DNA of 32,885 bases from Eubacteriales bacterium (GCA_045578685.1 JAZNKU010000244.1:1-32885); one strand, 5' to 3'; counted from the stretch's first letter, positions 2 to 6,660 are shown. The notes: a model not told the origin generated them from the sequence alone. Translations and numbers: made by a program.

Positions 2-271
2 TATATTTCCGAGCATCTGGACAGAAGTGCAAATATGATAGCGTTTATTTCAAAAGCATACGTAAAATCCCAGAATTGCCGCGACGAGCTGGCTCTTGCC
101 CGTACCAAGGGGAAGCCGATGAATGTTATTTATATAGACGACGTGTTGCTGTCCCCGGGCCTAAAAATGCGCTACGGAAGGATTCAGGCACTGTTTATGC
201 AGCAAATGTCCGAATCCGAGCTTTTTGAAAGATTGTATCTCGTTGAAGCTATGACGGCTTCCAAGGAGTAG
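2..271 (+). CDS. TIR-domain protein, C-terminal fragment (5' end lies outside the window)
   Basis: The frame is open from nt 2 to the TAG at 269-271, so ATG 35 is probably internal. ..ISEHLDRSANMIAFISKAYVKSQNCRDELALA.. aligns position-for-position with ..IAEHIERCDLFIAFLSGSYLDFLDKVDELNYS.. of the TIR domain in the next gene. It carries a classic S-x-x-C-x-x-E-L TIR motif. Confidence 0.75.
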   Translation, partial: YISEHLDRSANMIAFISKAYVKSQNCRDELALARTKGKPMNVIYIDDVLLSPGLKMRYGRIQALFMQQMSESELFERLYLVEAMTASKE

Positions 272-279
272 GAGACATT

Positions 280-3216
280 ATGGAAAATTCAGTTTACAAG
301 CCTGATATTTATGAAGGCGGCGATCCGTATATTTTTGTCAGCTTTCATCAGAATGACAGAGAAAGAATTTTAAATATTCTTGAAAAACTTGATATGAGAG
401 GATTCCGCTTCTGGATCGATGACGGAATTTCTCCCGGTATGGAGACCGACGAGATCATAGCCGAGCATATCGAGAGATGTGATTTATTTATTGCGTTTTT
501 GTCCGGAAGTTATCTCGACTTTTTGGATAAGGTCGACGAGCTGAACTATTCAAGGGACACCAACAGGGAATATCTGCTGATATATCTGGAGGACGTGGTT
601 CTGCCTGCAGGTCTTGATATGAGATTTATGCGTTCCCAAAGCATCAGGGCATTTTCAATGAGCGATGAGGACGTATATTCTCAGCTTCTCAATATTGACG
701 GTGCAAAAAGATTTTACGGAATTACGGACACGAGTCTGCGTTCATCTGCGGAAAAGATTTTTGATGATCTCGAAAAGCTCTATCCCGAGCATAAGGTCTT
801 TGCTTTGGATGCTGTTGCCAAGCAGGTATCAAAGGGAATTTCGGAGCTGTACGTGCGTGCAGGTTATCCCAGCGCCGACAGACTTATGCTGGACTATGGC
901 TTTGCGCATATAAGTACCGATGATGCACGGGCTCTTCGCAGCAGTGTTCTCTATCAGCCCGGATTTGAGCCCGATATCATCAAGCCGAGAATAGATTATA
1001 TTGTGAATACACTTGCCAAGGATTATCCGGATAAACATATATCCGATAATCTGGCAAAAAGCCACAAATCTATCTATAAGTCGGTTCTGGGTATCAGCGT
1101 ATGGCTGGGATATGATTCCGCGGAGGAAATGTTAAGAGCCTACGGATTTACAGGTATATCCTCGGATGCCGGCCGAAGAGAGACCGACTGTAAGGCGGTT
1201 ATAGAACAGTTGAAGCTTCGTTATGAGGGTAAAGCTAAGCCTGCTTCCATAACGGGTATTATTGCGGAAAATCCGGACATTAAGGGTAATCTGAAAACAG
1301 CAATCAACCGTTCTTCCGAAATATACGGCATGACCTTACATCGGTATCTGACAAGTATAGGTCTTATCGTACGCCCCGAAAAAGAAAAGTGCACAAAGCT
1401 GGCGCTTGACAGAGTGAAGATAATCGAAGATATAAAGGAGCTTTACAGAACTCCCGGTCTTGATTACGGAAGTTTTGAGGATGCTGAGGGAACTCTTGAT
1501 CAGATTATCGTCAAGAAAAACAGAAAGAATGAGATTACTGTTACCGGATGCAGCTTTTGTGATGAAACGATGCGTATTCCCTACGGTATAGACTATATAG
1601 GAAATGAGTCATTTTATGCACAGGGTGATCTTAAAACACTTATTATTCCTCCCTCGGTAAAGGAGATAAAAGAATCTGCTTTTTCCGATTGTGATGGGTT
1701 GGAAACGGTGATCTTCTCCGAAGGATTGGAGCGCATTGGCAATCTTGCTTTTTCAGGCTGTACATCCTTGAAGAAGCTGGTGCTTCCACATTCTCTCAGG
1801 GATATCGGTAACGAAGCTTTTGCCGGATGTGAAGAGCTTTCGGAGGTTGAATTCAAAAACTTCAGAGTCAATATTCAGGAGGATGCATTCAACGATTGCC
1901 TGTATGAGCTTGAATATCTACAGGACGAGGGTGCATCTCCTGCCGATTACTTTGAACTTAACGTGGATAAGAAAAACAATGCCAAGATCACTGCATATAC
2001 CGGCGACGAGGAGGTTGTGGTTATCCCTGCTATGATAGCGGGACACCCTGTTATCTCTTTGGAAAAGGGTTGCTTTAAGGGTAACGAATACGTCAGAGAG
2101 ATATATATAAGCGATTATATTTCTGCGGTAAACGGTGACGTGTTCAAGGATTGCAAAAATCTGGAAAAGGTTCATCTTTCCGAATCGGTTAAATCTCTTA
2201 CGGGAACAGCCTTTGCGGGATGTACCAATCTTACTGAGATAAACATACCCGACAGCATGGAGGAGGTTCAGCGCGGTCTGTTCAAGGATTCGCCGCTGAC
2301 TACCTTATATGTTGGAAAGGGAACCAAAAAAATAAGTTCCGATGCCTTCTACAAGGGGGAGGCGGATTTTGCAACCGGAATGTATTTCAAAAAGAAATCT
2401 ATCGAAAATATTATAATCGATTCCTCCAACCCTTACCTCACCGTTAACGGTACGGCACTTCTTTCCGCTGACCAAAAAACTCTTATTGCCGAGCTTGGCG
2501 ATCCTGTTAAAGCGGTAATACCCGAGGGAGTAGAGGAAATATCGCCTCAGGCATACGACAGACTGGGATCTCTGTGTGAAATAGAATTCCCTTCAACTCT
2601 CAAGAAGATCGGAGAAAAGGCCTTTGCAGGTACCAATCTTAAAAGTGTTGAGCTGCCGCGCTCTCTTGAGGTTATAGAAGCACAGGCGTTCAGCTTCTGC
2701 CGGGTGCTATCCAATCTTGATGTAAATGAAGGACTCAGGATCATCGGTGCTCAAGCCTTTGCAGGATGTCCCATCGAGGACGTATATATTCCGGCATCGG
2801 TTGAGAGCATAGGTAACGACAGCTTCCTCGCTGTCTCTACCTATCAGGGCCAAATCAGTCAAAAATTCAGAGTGGATACGGCAAACCTTTATATTATAGC
2901 CGACGGAGTTGCGCTTTATGAAAGATCCGGAGACACGCTCAAGCTGATCAAGGCTTATCATCCCGATCTCAGATTTATGCCCAACACCCAAGCCCCCGAG
3001 CCTATAGAGTACAGCATAATTGAAGGTACTACCGAGATTTCGGCACAGGCATTCTCACGTTGCAACAACCTCAGCGGTTTGGTTATCCCGGAAAGCGTTC
3101 GTATTATAGGTGATATGGCATTCTGGGATTGCAGCAAATTATCGGAAATACATATTCCCGAGGGTTGTGTGGTCTCCGCCAAGGCCTTCTTCGGGATTTC
3201 ACCCCAAATGATATAA
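280..3216 (+). CDS. TIR domain - helical repeat linker - BspA-type leucine-rich repeat protein (978 aa), predicted cytoplasmic
   Basis: N-terminal TIR motifs: GDPYIFVSF, RGFRFWIDDGISPG, CDLFIAFLS, VDEL. Residues ~150-440 hold three ~60-80-aa repeats ending in GY.s...mL..YGF..IS. Residues ~440-978 are reiterated BspA/LRR_5-like units (IP.sV..IG..AF.gC..L..v). I saw no signal peptide, TM helix or P-loop. GGAGA lies upstream of ATG 280, and the gap to the upstream stop is 8 nt. Confidence 0.85.
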   Translation: MENSVYKPDIYEGGDPYIFVSFHQNDRERILNILEKLDMRGFRFWIDDGISPGMETDEIIAEHIERCDLFIAFLSGSYLDFLDKVDELNYSRDTNREYLLIYLEDVVLPAGLDMRFMRSQSIRAFSMSDEDVYSQLLNIDGAKRFYGITDTSLRSSAEKIFDDLEKLYPEHKVFALDAVAKQVSKGISELYVRAGYPSADRLMLDYGFAHISTDDARALRSSVLYQPGFEPDIIKPRIDYIVNTLAKDYPDKHISDNLAKSHKSIYKSVLGISVWLGYDSAEEMLRAYGFTGISSDAGRRETDCKAVIEQLKLRYEGKAKPASITGIIAENPDIKGNLKTAINRSSEIYGMTLHRYLTSIGLIVRPEKEKCTKLALDRVKIIEDIKELYRTPGLDYGSFEDAEGTLDQIIVKKNRKNEITVTGCSFCDETMRIPYGIDYIGNESFYAQGDLKTLIIPPSVKEIKESAFSDCDGLETVIFSEGLERIGNLAFSGCTSLKKLVLPHSLRDIGNEAFAGCEELSEVEFKNFRVNIQEDAFNDCLYELEYLQDEGASPADYFELNVDKKNNAKITAYTGDEEVVVIPAMIAGHPVISLEKGCFKGNEYVREIYISDYISAVNGDVFKDCKNLEKVHLSESVKSLTGTAFAGCTNLTEINIPDSMEEVQRGLFKDSPLTTLYVGKGTKKISSDAFYKGEADFATGMYFKKKSIENIIIDSSNPYLTVNGTALLSADQKTLIAELGDPVKAVIPEGVEEISPQAYDRLGSLCEIEFPSTLKKIGEKAFAGTNLKSVELPRSLEVIEAQAFSFCRVLSNLDVNEGLRIIGAQAFAGCPIEDVYIPASVESIGNDSFLAVSTYQGQISQKFRVDTANLYIIADGVALYERSGDTLKLIKAYHPDLRFMPNTQAPEPIEYSIIEGTTEISAQAFSRCNNLSGLVIPESVRIIGDMAFWDCSKLSEIHIPEGCVVSAKAFFGISPQMI

Positions 3217-3229
3217 AAGGAGAAATAAA

Positions 3230-3448
3230 ATGGAAAGACAACCTATCAGTTCATCAAATATTGTAAGTGCCGGTTATGACCCTGCTACACAGACCCTGGA
3301 GGTCGAGTTCAAGGGCGGTGTGGTGTGGCAGTATATGAATTTCCCTGAGTATATGTGGTTTGAATTTTTAGGCGCGCCCTCACAGGGAAAGTATTTTCAT
3401 GAGAACATCCGCAACAGATTTGGAGATTTAGGCTTCAGGGTACAGTAA
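3230..3448 (+). CDS. KTSC-domain small protein (72 aa)
   Basis: SSNIVSAGYDPATQTLEVEFKGGVVWQYMNFPEYMWFEFLGAPSQGKYFHENIRNRF matches the KTSC (PF13619-type) pattern. AAAGGAGA RBS lies 6 nt upstream. The gene starts 13 nt after the previous stop. Confidence 0.8.
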   Translation: MERQPISSSNIVSAGYDPATQTLEVEFKGGVVWQYMNFPEYMWFEFLGAPSQGKYFHENIRNRFGDLGFRVQ

Positions 3449-3449
3449 G

Positions 3450-5240
3450 ATGATCTGGAATATTTGCTTTATAATTTCCCCGTTAATCATTCTCGTTTCG
3501 GTCTTATATGCTTTGGCTGTGGCAAGAAATTATAAAAGCGACCGTGTTCTTACGCCCTTTTATATAATTTTTGCAGGAGTTTTTCTGTCGGTGTTTATAG
3601 GGTTGATACCGATGTTTTCCTCTATGCTTGCCGAAGAATCGGGATTTATACTTAAGCTTTGTGTTTTTGACATATTGCAGACGATACAGGTTTTTACCGT
3701 CAACGTGGGTGCGGATCTGATACTTGATAATATCAGCAATGCTTCGTCCTCTCTGAGCGGTGCATATTCGATGTATATGTCGGCACTGTTCTTTGTTGCA
3801 CCGGTTCTTACCTTTGGATTTTTGGTATCACTGTTCAAAAATCTTATCGAGGATCTGAATTACAGATTTCATTATTTCGGAGATGTATACGTATTTTCCG
3901 AGATGAACGAAAAGTCCTTGCTTCTTGCCGAAAGCATCAGAACAAAACATAAAAAAGCTCTGTTGGTCTTTACTGATGTGGACCGGGAGAACGGCGATGT
4001 ATTAAGTGAGCATGTTGAAACTGCTATGAGCTTGAAGGCGGTTATTCTGAAAAAGAATATTGTTGCGGCGGATCTTATAAGACATAGCAAAAAAGCGCAG
4101 ATGTTCCTTTTTGCGATCGGAGAAAAAGAAGACCGTAACCTGATAGATTCACTCAAGCTTCTGGAAAAGTACTCGCACAGAAAGAACACAAGCCTTTATA
4201 CGTTTTCCTCCGGCACGGAGGGCGAGCTTTTGCTGGCAAATGCCGAGAGAGGTGAGATAAAGCTCAGACGTGTAAATGAGGTGCGTTTCCTTATATACCG
4301 ATTTCTTTATGATGAGGGCGAACGTATTTTTTCCTCCGCTGTATCAACGGAATCCGATAAAAAGAAGATACATATCGTAATCGCGGGATTGGGAAAATAC
4401 GGCACGGAAATTCTTAAAGCCGTCACCTGGTTTTCGCAGATGGACGGTTATTGCGTGACCGTTGATGCTTTTGACAGCGATGAGCTTGCCGAAGAAAAGT
4501 TTTCAGCCCTTTGCTCCGAGCTTATGGATAATAGATATAACGGAGTTTTTATTCCCGGAGAAAGCGAGTATACGGTAAATATTCATTCCGGTGTGGATGT
4601 CAGAACAAAAAAATTTGCCGATACTCTGACAAGCTTTACCGAGGTAAGCTTTGTGTTTGTGTGTCTGGGAGATGATGAAAATAATATAAACCAGGCTGCC
4701 AATATCAGAATGCTCTGTGAACGCGCGGGACACAAGCCGATTATAAAAGCGGTAGTGTACAATACCGAGGAAAAGGAAGCATTGATCGGTATTACCAACT
4801 ATCGAGGTCAGCCATACGGGATTGAGCCTATGGGAGAGCTGTCCTATTCGTATTCCGAAGAAATACTTATGGGAAGCGAGCTTGAGAAGCTTGCACTTGA
4901 GCGTCATCTGAAATGGGGCAAGGAGGAGGAATTCTGGCAGTATGAGTATAATTACCGTTCCTCTATGGCTTCAGCCGTTCATATGAAAGCAAAGATAAAT
5001 TGTTGTATTCCGGGATCGGATAAAAGAGGAGAGGATCTTACCGTTGAGGAAAGAGACATTCTTGAAAATCTGGAGCACCGAAGATGGAATGCATATATGC
5101 GCTCGGAAGGTTATGTATACAGCGGATCTCCGGATAAATCCAGCAGAAACGATCTTGCCAAAATGCATCATGATCTTGTGGATTTTGAATCCTTGACAGA
5201 AGAGGAAAAAAGAAAGGACAGCAACGTTGCTTCCTTGTGA
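3450..5240 (+). CDS. Multi-pass membrane protein with cytoplasmic Rossmann-like (TrkA-N/RCK-type GxGxxG) module and C-terminal RyR-like domain (596 aa)
   Basis: About 4 hydrophobic helices lie in residues 1-135. IHIVIAGLGKYGTEILKAV...VTVDAFD is a beta1-GxGxxG-alpha-beta2-acidic Rossmann signature. The C-terminal LEHRRWNAYMRSEGYVYSGSPDKSSRNDLAKMHHDLVDFESLTEEEKRKD fits the bacterial RyR-domain pattern (E..H..W....GW.YG....K.H..LvpyeeL.eeeK..D). The ATG lies 1 nt after the KTSC stop, suggesting translational coupling. No K+ selectivity filter motif was seen. Confidence 0.7.
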   Translation: MIWNICFIISPLIILVSVLYALAVARNYKSDRVLTPFYIIFAGVFLSVFIGLIPMFSSMLAEESGFILKLCVFDILQTIQVFTVNVGADLILDNISNASSSLSGAYSMYMSALFFVAPVLTFGFLVSLFKNLIEDLNYRFHYFGDVYVFSEMNEKSLLLAESIRTKHKKALLVFTDVDRENGDVLSEHVETAMSLKAVILKKNIVAADLIRHSKKAQMFLFAIGEKEDRNLIDSLKLLEKYSHRKNTSLYTFSSGTEGELLLANAERGEIKLRRVNEVRFLIYRFLYDEGERIFSSAVSTESDKKKIHIVIAGLGKYGTEILKAVTWFSQMDGYCVTVDAFDSDELAEEKFSALCSELMDNRYNGVFIPGESEYTVNIHSGVDVRTKKFADTLTSFTEVSFVFVCLGDDENNINQAANIRMLCERAGHKPIIKAVVYNTEEKEALIGITNYRGQPYGIEPMGELSYSYSEEILMGSELEKLALERHLKWGKEEEFWQYEYNYRSSMASAVHMKAKINCCIPGSDKRGEDLTVEERDILENLEHRRWNAYMRSEGYVYSGSPDKSSRNDLAKMHHDLVDFESLTEEEKRKDSNVASL

Positions 5241-5257
5241 TTTGATATTGATAAAGA

Positions 5258-5302
5258 AAGCGGAGTGATTTTCACTCCGCTTTGTGATTTTCACTCCGCT
5301 TT
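5258..5302. terminator. Bidirectional intrinsic terminator between convergent genes, with a 19-bp tandem duplication of its 3' arm
   Basis: Stem AAGCGGAGTGA (5258-5268) pairs with TCACTCCGCTT (5272-5282), followed by TTT. GTGATTTTCACTCCGCTTT occurs at 5265-5283 and again perfectly at 5284-5302. Confidence 0.75.
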
Positions 5303-6646
5303 GACGTTTTTAAGCCATTTTCCGTAGTTGACCTTCCAGAAGGCTATGAAGCATTTTAATATCTGATCTCCCTTGAGGCAGATGAAGGTGACCACCAGGG
5401 GCCACTTGAATACATACGCCGAAAGGAAGGACATGGGGAGCACCAGACACCACATGAATATGGTATCCACCTTGAAAACAAAGGCGGTGTCGCCGCCGGA
5501 GCGAACTATGCCCGTATGTACTGCGTTCTGGTATGCGGTACCGATCACCGTTATCGACAGTACCAGCATAAACTGGTTGGATAGCTCGGTTGCGGCAGCC
5601 GATACGTTGTACATCGCATTTATGGGACCGCGGAGAAGGAAGATAAGTGCGCCTGTCACTAAACCGATACCGAGGAAAAGAATCTGAAAGGTTTTTGAAT
5701 AGAGAGGTATACGGGAAAGCTTACGCTCACCTATGGTCTTACCTATCATAACCGCTGTTGCTGTAGCCGAGGCGTAGGTCACAACGGTTATGACCGAGAA
5801 TACCGTGGAGGCTATTGAGTTTGCGGCGATGGCTTCCTTTGTGGTATGACCGAGAATTGCGGTCTGGAGCATCTGGGCAAAGCCCCACAGTACACCCGAG
5901 AAAAATACGGGAGCACCGGTCTTGAAATAGGTTTTAAACAGAGCCTTGTCAAAGGGGATAAGCTCCTTTGCCTTGAGCTTGATCTTTTTATCAATGCCGA
6001 ATACATATACACATACCACGGTAAACTCAAGGGCTCTTGCAATAAGCGTTGCATACGCCGCACCCTTGACACCCATAGCGGGACAGCCTAATTTACCGTA
6101 GATCATTATATAGTTCAGTCCGAGGTTAGTAAGCAACGCAAAGGTTGAGCTTGCAAAGCCGATAAGTACGGTTTCAACACTGCGGAGCATTGAGAGCATT
6201 GCCTGTGTGAAGGCGAATATAGGGTAGGTGAATACCATTATCTTAAGGTATAGCATACCCTGTCCTATAACATCTGCATCGTTTGAGAGCAGGGACAGAA
6301 CTCCGCGGGGCATGGCAAAGCATATGGCAAAGAGTACCATTGATACACCGACCGCCACCTTTGAGGATATAGCTGCCATATTCTTGACACCGTCTATACG
6401 GCCTTCTCCCCAGGCTCTGGCGCTGAATATCAGCGAGCCCTCTACGATGCCGGTTACCGACATCTGGAGAAGATACTGTATCTGGTTGACCAGTGCAACA
6501 CCCGACAGGGCATCCTCGCTGTACCGTCCCACCATAACGCTGTCTGTTATGTTTACCAGATAAACTATAACATTCTGCAAGGCTATGGCAAGGGTCAGAG
6601 AGATAAAAGTTATATAGAATTTCTTCTGTTTAACCAATAGTGACAT
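5291..6646 (-). CDS. MATE family efflux transporter
   Basis: About 450 aa with 12 TM-like segments and typical MATE motifs (VGRYSEDALSGVALVNQI, GAAYATLIAR). I prefer ATG at 6646 over the TTG at 6658 given in the ORF track. Confidence 0.85.
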   Translation of the reverse strand: MSLLVKQKKFYITFISLTLAIALQNVIVYLVNITDSVMVGRYSEDALSGVALVNQIQYLLQMSVTGIVEGSLIFSARAWGEGRIDGVKNMAAISSKVAVGVSMVLFAICFAMPRGVLSLLSNDADVIGQGMLYLKIMVFTYPIFAFTQAMLSMLRSVETVLIGFASSTFALLTNLGLNYIMIYGKLGCPAMGVKGAAYATLIARALEFTVVCVYVFGIDKKIKLKAKELIPFDKALFKTYFKTGAPVFFSGVLWGFAQMLQTAILGHTTKEAIAANSIASTVFSVITVVTYASATATAVMIGKTIGERKLSRIPLYSKTFQILFLGIGLVTGALIFLLRGPINAMYNVSAAATELSNQFMLVLSITVIGTAYQNAVHTGIVRSGGDTAFVFKVDTIFMWCLVLPMSFLSAYVFKWPLVVTFICLKGDQILKCFIAFWKVNYGKWLKNVKAE

Positions 6647-6660
6647 AATAAACCCCAAAT

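Follow-up and report, generated by a model that had tools for sequence, protein, structure and literature searches.

We analysed a contig of 32,885 nucleotides from an Eubacteriales bacterium (GCA_045578685.1 JAZNKU010000244.1:1-32885), referred to here as the window, which carries a group of four closely packed genes on the plus strand encoding, in order, a small TIR protein, a TIR protein with leucine-rich repeats (TIR-LRR), a KTSC-domain protein and a 596-residue membrane protein that we designate T. The intergenic gaps within this cassette measure 8, 13 and 1 bases, and the open reading frame of T (3450..5240, +) is the last of the group, its start codon lying a single base (3449) beyond the KTSC stop codon. 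T belongs to a conserved family and was modelled with AlphaFold2 (pLDDT 88.2, pTM 0.77), revealing N-terminal membrane helices, two tandem Rossmann domains of the RCK/KTN type and a C-terminal domain resembling the RyR domain of ryanodine receptors. The structure of this protein, its recurrent association with TIR genes and its candidacy as a membrane effector of TIR signalling are the subject of the present work.

The RyR (R12)-type domain spans residues 528-596 of T (5031..5237, +) and was delineated with Foldseek, hhalign and a profile of the T family; the AlphaFold2 model of T was built on 50 relatives. The Pfam RyR family (PF02026) matches T with an E-value of 0.011 and 16.4 bits, not reaching its gathering cut-off of 27.4 bits. 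Of the 50 relatives, 30 have RyR as their highest-ranking Pfam family (best E-value 9e-4), and one T relative, P0233, clears the cut-off with 28.3 bits. When the family profile was compared with PDB sequences, the only meaningful matches were RyR entries, with 6uhi at an E-value of 2.6e-5 and the Bacteroides thetaiotaomicron "putative ryanodine receptor" (PDB 3NRT, 4N05 and 6UAG; hereafter BT RyR) at about 0.05. A model of residues 471-596 (pLDDT 74) retrieved RyR-domain structures as its top 50 of 50 PDB matches in Foldseek, comprising BT RyR and Repeat12 and Repeat34 of RyR1-3. The best of these were the BT RyR entries 4n05, 6uag and 3nrt, with probabilities of 0.98-0.99, a root-mean-square deviation of about 3 Å and about 31% identity over 67 columns, at individual E-values of only about 0.05. 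Against the viral models of BFVD, the top matches of the same model were phage "RyR domain-containing proteins", and hhalign aligned residues 528-596 to genuine PF02026 proteins encoded near T at other loci with a probability of 93% and an E-value of 2.8e-7.

Phage proteins with RyR domains are reported to counter Thoeris defence: RyDEP hydrolyses the cyclic ADP-ribose (cADPR) isomers 2'cADPR and 3'cADPR, and homologues of RyDEP sequester 2'/3'cADPR with nanomolar affinity (PMC13232231, a preprint of May 2026). In RyDEP, H75 and D117 contact the terminal ribose and form the catalytic dyad, W78 contacts the adenine and H100 the phosphates; these contact residues are conserved through PF02026, including non-catalytic binders and animal R12 domains (PMC13232231). 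Mapped through the BT RyR alignment, by sequence register and not from a solved complex, H75, W78, H100 and D117 correspond to H543, W546, H573 and D590 of T, and alignments to the neighbour-encoded PF02026 proteins give the same placement. All T relatives share H543, W546 and H573, and at least 90% of them have D590. We infer from this register that the RyR-type domain of T would serve as a receptor for a cADPR-type signal, with H543, W546, H573 and D590 as its putative ligand residues. The juxtaposition of TIR enzymes and a RyR domain, which the initial annotation of the locus had called speculative, thus acquires a biochemical precedent in phage RyR-domain proteins that bind or cleave 2'/3'cADPR via residues conserved in T (PMC13232231). 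According to the titles of PDB entries 6uhh and 9l9b, the R12 domains of animal ryanodine receptors bind ATP and ADP. T ends six residues past D590, and the neighbour-encoded RyR proteins run about 20 residues further.

Immediately upstream of this domain lies a helical segment (residues 476-527; 4875..5030, +) carrying a second invariant H486-x-x-W489 motif and H511, with a spacing of 25 residues between H486 and H511 that equals the distance from H75 to H100 in RyDEP. An hhalign comparison of residues 472-537 with genuine RyR proteins recovered the expected register at a non-significant probability of 1.3%, and the two-repeat chimera 6uhi aligned with the C-terminal model over 117 columns with a TM-score of 0.45. 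On the basis of these motifs, residues 476-527 may represent a decayed first RyR repeat, echoing the two-repeat arrangement of R12.

The two RCK/KTN-like Rossmann domains precede this region. The first (residues 146-295; 3885..4334, +) shows alternating beta strands and alpha helices in the AlphaFold2 model and matches TrkA, and is degenerate in that a conserved F149-S150-E-L-N replaces the glycine motif. The second (residues 305-470; 4362..4859, +), recognized by its GxGxxG motif and by Foldseek, is canonical: its glycine motif reads G313-L-G315-K-Y-G318 (nucleotides 4386-4403), and beta-2 ends in D342. No relative departs from G313 or G318, and at least 90% keep G315 and D342. The sequence motifs suggest that this second domain probably holds an adenine nucleotide. 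The best PDB match of the full T model in Foldseek was TrkA 4g65_B (E-value 5.4e-5, probability 1.00, TM-score of 0.43 on the target), followed by the gating rings of Slo2.2, Slo1 and CASTOR. Pfam TrkA_N (PF02254) scored an E-value of 0.04 and 14.7 bits on T, below its gathering cut-off of 23.8 bits, and was detected below threshold in 21 of the 50 relatives (best E-value 1.5e-4).

T is genuinely homologous to RyR and Rossmann domains, even if below the curated Pfam cut-offs: the fold searches, the comparison of profiles and the conservation of ligand residues provide the basis. The domain order proposed in the initial annotation, a degenerate Rossmann segment followed by a canonical one and a C-terminal RyR module, is borne out by the F149-S150-E-L-N and G313-x-G315-x-x-G318 motifs, the match to TrkA 4g65_B, the 50 of 50 RyR structures retrieved by Foldseek, the 93% hhalign probability and the phage RyR proteins of BFVD. 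The profile searches for RyR and TrkA_N that it had recommended gave matches in both cases, neither of them at the level of Pfam annotation.

The membrane region comprises residues 1-140 (3450..3869, +), as defined by AlphaFold2 helices and Kyte-Doolittle hydropathy. The model places helices at residues 2-26, 36-59, 66-82, 88-96 and 103-140, and the hydropathy profile contains three strongly hydrophobic segments at 1-24, 35-58 and 105-128. Combining both, we delineate transmembrane helices TM1 (about residues 2-24), TM2 (about 35-58) and TM3 (about 105-128), with a lysine- and arginine-rich loop at residues 25-33 between the first two. The presence of N-terminal membrane helices was correctly anticipated in the initial annotation; its count of about four has to be revised, since in the model and the hydropathy profile the region reads as three transmembrane helices and an acidic amphipathic loop rather than a clean set of four. 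Loop 1 is rich in lysine and arginine across the family (consensus KYKxGR), and by the positive-inside rule this suggests an N-out, C-in topology that would place the C-terminal domains in the cytoplasm.

Between TM2 and TM3, residues 64-96 (3639..3737, +) form an amphipathic acidic helix-loop-helix that is the best-conserved stretch of the membrane region. Over the 50 relatives its columns follow the pattern K69..T78-x-Q80-x-F82-T83-[IV]-[DN]-[AV]-[DG]-x-[DE]..I91-x-[ED]93-N94-I95, with Q80 present in 49, F82 in all 50 and T83 in 45. Given an N-out topology this element would lie on the outer face or be re-entrant, and it may constitute a re-entrant or pore-lining loop. A K+ selectivity filter of the TVGYG type was found in the first 160 residues of none of the 50 relatives, in agreement with what had been noted for T itself, and we accordingly rejected the identification of T as a K+ channel.

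The cassette genes upstream of T supply the TIR context. The small stand-alone TIR gene is represented by its 3' part (2..271, +), its 5' end lying beyond the start of the contig; the frame is open from base 2 to 271, matches Pfam TIR_2 with an E-value of 7.5e-5 over profile positions 54-121 and displays a CRDEL catalytic-glutamate motif. Full-length orthologues of 144-166 residues occupy the equivalent place at eight other loci (L005, L087, L088 and L091-L095). The 978-residue TIR-LRR protein (280..3216, +; Pfam TIR_2 2.4e-12 at residues 18-136, LRR_5 1.6e-86) consists of an N-terminal TIR domain (nucleotides 331-687), a helical middle and BspA-type LRR_5 repeats (nucleotides ~1567-3213), and its Glu87 belongs to a VDEL motif whose counterparts in the alignment are VREL in the TIR domain of plant RPS4 and WDEL in Cat1. 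Both TIR genes that had been noted beside T (2..271 and 280..3216) thus encode domains that retain the catalytic-glutamate motif, and the TIR-LRR protein is the presumed sensor and signal generator. Its orthologues are 59-70% identical and lie without exception inside the same cassette. The 72-residue KTSC-domain protein (3230..3448, +; Pfam KTSC 6.9e-23) is the best-conserved product of the cassette, its 90%-identity cluster containing 111 members, and has no PADLOC or NCBIfam model.

The four-gene cassette was found intact and in the same order at L005, L087, L088 and L091-L095, among unrelated flanking genes, and the KTSC gene sits between TIR-LRR and T in every context read. Identities to the window proteins across these loci are 51-67% for T, 59-70% for TIR-LRR, 65-78% for the small TIR protein and 75-86% for KTSC, the cassette genes diverging in step. 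Because it remains intact among different flanks and its genes co-diverge, the cassette behaves, as judged from these comparisons, as a mobile unit.

The association between T and TIR genes extends beyond this cassette. Neighbourhoods were counted over 79 distinct loci, using crude gene calls and a TIR profile iterated from the window TIR. In 18 of the 79 loci a TIR gene is found no more than four genes away from T, mostly on the same strand, and in nine it is adjacent to T; the adjacent pairs measured are separated by gaps of 19-346 bp, on the same strand in L050, L052, L051, L039, L019, L035 and L011 and on the opposite strand in L079. The TIR-linked loci are spread over the T tree, and the density of TIR genes falls with gene distance from T, from 9/147 at distance 1 through 7/131, 4/123, 4/105, 2/94 and 1/84 at distances 2 to 6 to 1/245 at distances of 7 or more. 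Comparison of the 24/506 genes within four positions with the 1/245 at seven or more gives a Fisher odds ratio of 12 (p 8e-4), and with loci as the unit a conservative binomial test yields p 1.3e-5; both p-values are rough, as the loci are related, the gene calling is crude and the background is drawn from the same loci. The C-terminal modules of the adjacent TIR proteins include a Ser/Thr kinase, NACHT/NPHP3_N with TPR, NB-ARC with TPR, LRR_4/LRR_8 and LRR_5, as well as HD, a PQQ beta-propeller, TPR and a second TIR domain. The constant element among these partners is thus the pairing of TIR with T, the sensor modules being different, as one would expect if T responded to the output of TIR domains whatever the trigger. 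In total, 31 of 53 well-sampled loci have a TIR gene or a recurrent conflict-type neighbour nearby.

The T family is large and well conserved. A word-indexed search returned 362 relatives, nearly all of 580-620 residues and none with a Pfam annotation, and an exhaustive profile search yielded 2759 clusters at 50% identity with E-values of at most 1e-3, 1192 of them at 1e-30 or below. The family occurs in 338 species of GTDB; the 80 loci retrieved all derive from gut or rumen metagenome-assembled genomes labelled almost entirely as Clostridia/Bacillota lineages. Carriage by phages or plasmids was considered and found to be essentially absent, with one occurrence among 2.9 million viral contigs, one among 50,697 phage records and none on plasmids. 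The only relatives in viral collections, at about 40% identity, are MT835673.1:16794-18455 and L086 (IMGVR_UViG_3300007796_000088), both on phage-labelled metagenomic contigs. T can be multi-copy: the Acutalibacteraceae genome JAZQKN01 carries two T genes on separate contigs (L034 and L041), one of them in an island with AAA2-M41 and RyR genes. A 595-residue protein without Pfam hit at L005 (15602-17389) was tried as a T paralogue and discarded, the forced identity being 23% with no common motifs.

Unbiased clustering of the genes around T brought out a further set of recurrent neighbours. A protein of about 1160 residues with two AAA+ domains and Peptidase_M41 occupies position +1 of T in 15 loci, and distant full-length T paralogues of 677-956 residues are co-encoded in 10. 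Genuine RyR proteins of about 100 residues (PF02026, 6.6e-37) and a CARF-PD-(D/E)xK nuclease (PADLOC CARF4, 1.6e-31) each lie near T in seven loci, and TerB-like proteins, a tandem pair of about 159 residues (YbjN-like), Sel1 with HExxH and a small helix-turn-helix protein also recur. The clustering returned TIR, CARF nuclease, RyR and AAA+ protease genes, and not generic defence genes such as restriction-modification. Many of these neighbours form an island with the order two ~159-residue proteins, CARF nuclease, T, AAA+/M41, T paralogue, helix-turn-helix protein, RyR, Sel1 with HExxH and TerB-like. It was seen in L058, L082, L085, L011, L029, L030, L037 and L047 without a PADLOC system assignment, its order being repeated in L058, L082, L085, L011 and L029, and it includes TIR in L011, L018 and L029. 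This island looks like an undescribed nucleotide-signalling conflict system.

The stand-alone RyR proteins (L011:20028-20330, L029:8254-8556, L041:5659-5970, L058:12832-13122, L082:14018-14302, L085:15419-15709 and L026:9880-10257) keep the H-x-x-W and EKEYD motifs. At the position of RyDEP H100 they carry a threonine (K-T-T-P-C-L-V-P-Y), and T carries a histidine. Judging from these motifs, they could act as host buffers or sponges for the same signal as T.

The cassette of the window is followed by a strong hairpin (5257..5283) with a 12-bp stem containing six G-C pairs, situated between the T stop codon, which ends at 5240, and the convergent minus-strand MatE gene, which ends at 5291; from its sequence and position it is likely the terminator closing the cassette. 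The upstream boundary lies outside the window, the first TIR gene being interrupted by the contig edge. The other 27 kb encode ordinary metabolic and envelope functions, including aconitase, an SLH-domain deacetylase, an RNA methyltransferase, sugar kinases and a serine dehydratase. A MatE efflux gene lies a few genes from T in eight loci, in varying orientation, among them the window (5291-6658, -), L006, L033, L043, L046, L063 and L078; this proximity may be residual synteny or meaningless.

Several other observations concern the surroundings of T in related genomes. In L005 the cassette is preceded by LRR_5 proteins, a MoxR-type AAA+ gene and a DUF2201/VWA-like gene, and in L091 by a 345-residue TIR protein and a 1628-residue LRR_5 protein. 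Giant BspA-type LRR_5 proteins of 1408-1628 residues lie beside the cassette in several genomes, in addition to its own TIR-LRR_5 protein (L087:9168-14039(-), L091:1461-6347, L092:10159-14385(-), and also L093-L095). At the P0075 locus (L003/L013), T is followed by a 730-residue T paralogue and a TIR-LRR gene and, further downstream, by Mu-like Mor and GemA genes. Upstream it is preceded by a polymorphic-toxin-like set composed of an FtsK/DUF87 ATPase, an LHH nuclease, a SUKH_5 immunity gene and a TNT toxin.

Considering these observations together, we interpret T as a TIR-signal-gated membrane effector of a Thoeris-like anti-phage cassette, with a probability of roughly 0.5. Other recurrent neighbours of T, the stand-alone RyR proteins and the CARF nuclease, are likewise parts of nucleotide signalling. 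In the mechanism we envisage, the LRR-bearing TIR protein, or elsewhere a TIR protein with another sensor, would detect the invader, and its TIR domain would convert NAD+ to an ADP-ribose-derived signal, most simply a cADPR isomer. The RyR-type domain of T would bind this signal through H543, W546, H573 and D590, and the resulting change would be relayed through the tandem RCK/KTN-like domains, the second probably holding an adenine nucleotide. The membrane domain would then open or rearrange, so that ion gradients or membrane integrity would be lost and the infection would abort. Three elements of this scheme are inferences: production of a signal by the TIR proteins over and above NAD+ depletion, ion conduction or membrane disruption by the N-terminal part of T, and a role of the system in defence against phage. 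Within the reach of sequence analysis, structure prediction and comparative genomics, the results support the effector role that the initial annotation had suggested for T.

A number of findings weigh against this interpretation. The T of the window lies below the Pfam cut-offs for RyR and TrkA_N alike, and its RyR domain is incomplete, covering positions 29-74 of the 91 of the Pfam model, with the last helix absent. T has no hit in PADLOC or NCBIfam, PADLOC containing no model for T, and a pore is hypothetical, no known selectivity filter being seen. The pairing with TIR is not universal, most T loci having no TIR gene nearby, and the commonest immediate neighbour of T is instead the AAA+/M41 protease, in many cases without TIR nearby. 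No recurrent conflict-type neighbour was found in 22 of the 53 well-sampled loci, and some of these loci look like housekeeping contexts, as in L001, beside Na_Ca_ex, and L089. Several of the TIR partners are, moreover, STAND/NLR-like. In such proteins the TIR domain usually acts as an effector by depleting NAD+ and not by making a signal.

Other explanations can be set beside this one. T could have a housekeeping role in the Clostridia of gut and rumen, as an RCK-gated channel or transporter for cations under nucleotide control whose RyR and Rossmann domains sense common adenine nucleotides such as ATP, ADP, NAD(H) or ADP-ribose, with TIR genes nearby only because defence genes favour this insertion spot. 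The presence of T in 338 species at a near-constant length of about 596 residues, its near absence from phages and plasmids, the 22 loci without conflict-type neighbours and the recurrence of MatE or ABC transporters nearby would all suit such a role, as would the classical function of RCK domains in gating K+ transport (with matches here to TrkA, Slo and CASTOR) and the binding of ATP and ADP by animal R12 domains (6uhh and 9l9b titles). The flanks of T, however, differ even between relatives that are 60-70% identical, and the unit of TIR, TIR-LRR, KTSC and T moves as a block and co-diverges. TIR density drops with distance from T, TIR partners with unrelated sensors occur on many branches of the tree, and the recurrent neighbours are TIR, CARF nuclease, RyR and AAA+ protease genes rather than restriction-modification. 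The initial annotation had held that conservation of the family in housekeeping contexts would speak against an effector; the family proves not to be bound to any single housekeeping context, TIR genes are concentrated near T and the cassette moves as a unit, and we consider a housekeeping role unlikely. The prominence of the AAA+/M41 protease raises a different scenario, in which T belongs chiefly to the conflict system of the island, as a membrane anchor or sensor that would, for example, dock the FtsH-like soluble protease or sense envelope or ion stress, and the TIR proteins are interchangeable add-on effectors. Here one may cite the AAA2-M41 protease as the commonest neighbour, at +1 in 15 loci mostly without TIR nearby, the T paralogues of 677-956 residues co-encoded in 10 loci, which suggest hetero-oligomers, and the gene order repeated in five loci. 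Yet the window cassette lacks the island genes and T is kept there with two TIR genes, no evidence points to contact between T and the protease, and the island itself holds three kinds of nucleotide-signal receptor (CARF nuclease, stand-alone RyR and T), with TIR in three loci, a content that fits signalling better than anchoring. This scenario appears rather unlikely to us.

Two further readings concern the part that T might play in TIR signalling. T might be a regulator, a membrane-anchored sponge or glycosidase like RyDEP that sets the threshold of a response or ends it, the effectors being the TIR proteins themselves, through NAD+ depletion, or other neighbours. The equivalents of the RyDEP catalytic dyad, H543 and D590, are conserved in T together with the other contacts, sponge-like small genuine RyR proteins occur in the same islands, and many TIR partners are of the STAND type and able to kill by NADase activity alone. 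Against this, a membrane and tandem-RCK module of 470 residues would be superfluous in a sponge or hydrolase, the conserved acidic membrane loop argues for a function of the membrane part in its own right, and the four residues are also found in non-catalytic binders and animal ryanodine receptors, so that their conservation does not imply catalysis (PMC13232231). We regard a purely regulatory T as improbable. A narrower and more ambitious form of the effector interpretation, which we advance only tentatively and as a doubtful possibility, is that T forms an ion channel of bacterial immunity whose gating by a cADPR isomer from TIR enzymes involves the RyR (R12) domain working with the RCK ring; its cation pore would be lined by the conserved acidic TM2-TM3 loop. 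Were this true, the pairing of cADPR with ryanodine receptors in animals, and the R12 domain with it, would trace to prokaryotic TIR-RyR immunity, and the phage RyDEP sponges and glycosidases would be captured copies of a host ligand-binding module.

TIR enzymes producing cyclic ADP-ribose signals hold a central place in the immunity of bacteria, plants and animals, and few receptors are listed for these signals. The first demonstration that a RyR domain binds 2'/3'cADPR dates from 2026 and concerns phage counter-defence proteins alone. If T is indeed an effector gated by such a signal, host receptors of the RyR type would have their first candidate, and the known effectors would gain a further class, probably amounting to a Thoeris type of its own, with most of its members in uncultured Clostridia of gut and rumen. 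The source of the phage RyR-domain sponges would be explained as well, and the long-debated action of cADPR on RyR-type domains could be tested in a simple bacterium. T would then form the host counterpart to the phage RyR-domain proteins and offer a parallel in bacteria to the link between cADPR and RyR in animals. The analysis points in addition to a larger uncharacterised island combining RyR, CARF nuclease, TIR and FtsH-like AAA+ protease genes.

Compared with the phage and Bacteroides proteins RyDEP and BT RyR, T has the RyR fold with H-x-x-W...H...D in the same register and, like RyDEP, belongs to an arena of TIR signalling. Unlike RyDEP, it is a 596-residue cellular membrane protein instead of a small soluble phage protein, and its RyR domain scores below the Pfam cut-off. 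The last RyR helix, which in RyDEP and BT RyR forms the dimer interface, is missing from T. The functional assignments are likewise opposed, RyDEP being an anti-defence protein and T being expected on the host side, receiving the signal. Animal ryanodine receptors provide a second point of reference. Their R12 domain binds adenine nucleotides and their gating has been linked to cADPR. With these receptors T shares a predicted cytoplasmic RyR-type domain with conserved ligand residues, for which TIR enzymes could supply cADPR-type ligands; the homology is confined to a domain of about 70 residues, one clear repeat in T against tandem repeats in the animal proteins, and three transmembrane helices with RCK domains stand in place of a six-helix pore. 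The RCK/KTN channels and transporters (TrkA-TrkH, KtrAB, MthK, Kch, Slo and CASTOR) resemble T in having two RCK N-lobes directly after the last transmembrane helix, and the second lobe of T has a GxGxxG motif and an acidic residue after beta-2 as in RCK channels. By AlphaFold2 helices and hydropathy, TM2-loop-TM3 of T also appears similar to their M1-pore loop-M2. T differs from them in lacking a K+ filter in all 50 relatives, in a TrkA_N score below the cut-off, in a first lobe without glycine motif, in the possession of a RyR domain and in neighbours that are TIR, CARF and RyR genes and not genes of K+ transport.

The described Thoeris systems include several membrane effectors, namely those of type II (transmembrane with Macro), type V (DUF2270/ThsF), type VI (DUF6650, with or without transmembrane helices), type VII (SLATT) and type X (the ThsK channel). 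To compare T with the described effectors (ThsA and ThsC-ThsL), it was searched with Pfam at E-values up to 1, which gave only the RyR and TrkA_N matches below threshold and nothing for SIR2, SLOG, Macro, DUF2270, DUF6650 or SLATT, and it has no match in PADLOC; caspase-like, CMP hydrolase, HIT and other effectors were compared only via these Pfam and PADLOC scans. For type X, we took as ThsK candidate a 208-residue membrane protein (L090:3369-3995) containing TLTYGG and without Pfam hit, which lies beside the published type X TIR of Vibrio sp. JCM 19052, with a ThsB-type TIR gene on either side; that it is ThsK is assumed from adjacency only. The possibility that T is such a channel was rejected, hhalign giving a probability of 0.4% and the candidate lacking RCK and RyR domains. 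A survey of 29 Thoeris types from December 2025 contains no RyR or TrkA among its effectors or tables, mentioning ryanodine receptors only in its discussion of animal cADPR, and text searches of the literature returned no description of an effector with the transmembrane-RCK-RyR architecture of T. The window cassette departs from known Thoeris systems in having large TIR-sensor fusions and a small TIR protein in place of a single ThsB, and in the added KTSC gene. It agrees with them in placing TIR genes with the catalytic glutamate in one operon with a membrane protein that bears a predicted cytoplasmic nucleotide-binding domain, in a TIR-effector pairing that recurs while the sensor parts vary, and in its occurrence as a cassette among unrelated genes. 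T is best filed as a candidate for a new type of effector, transmembrane-RCK-RyR in architecture and unrelated to the known Thoeris effectors, for a known kind of TIR-signalling defence.

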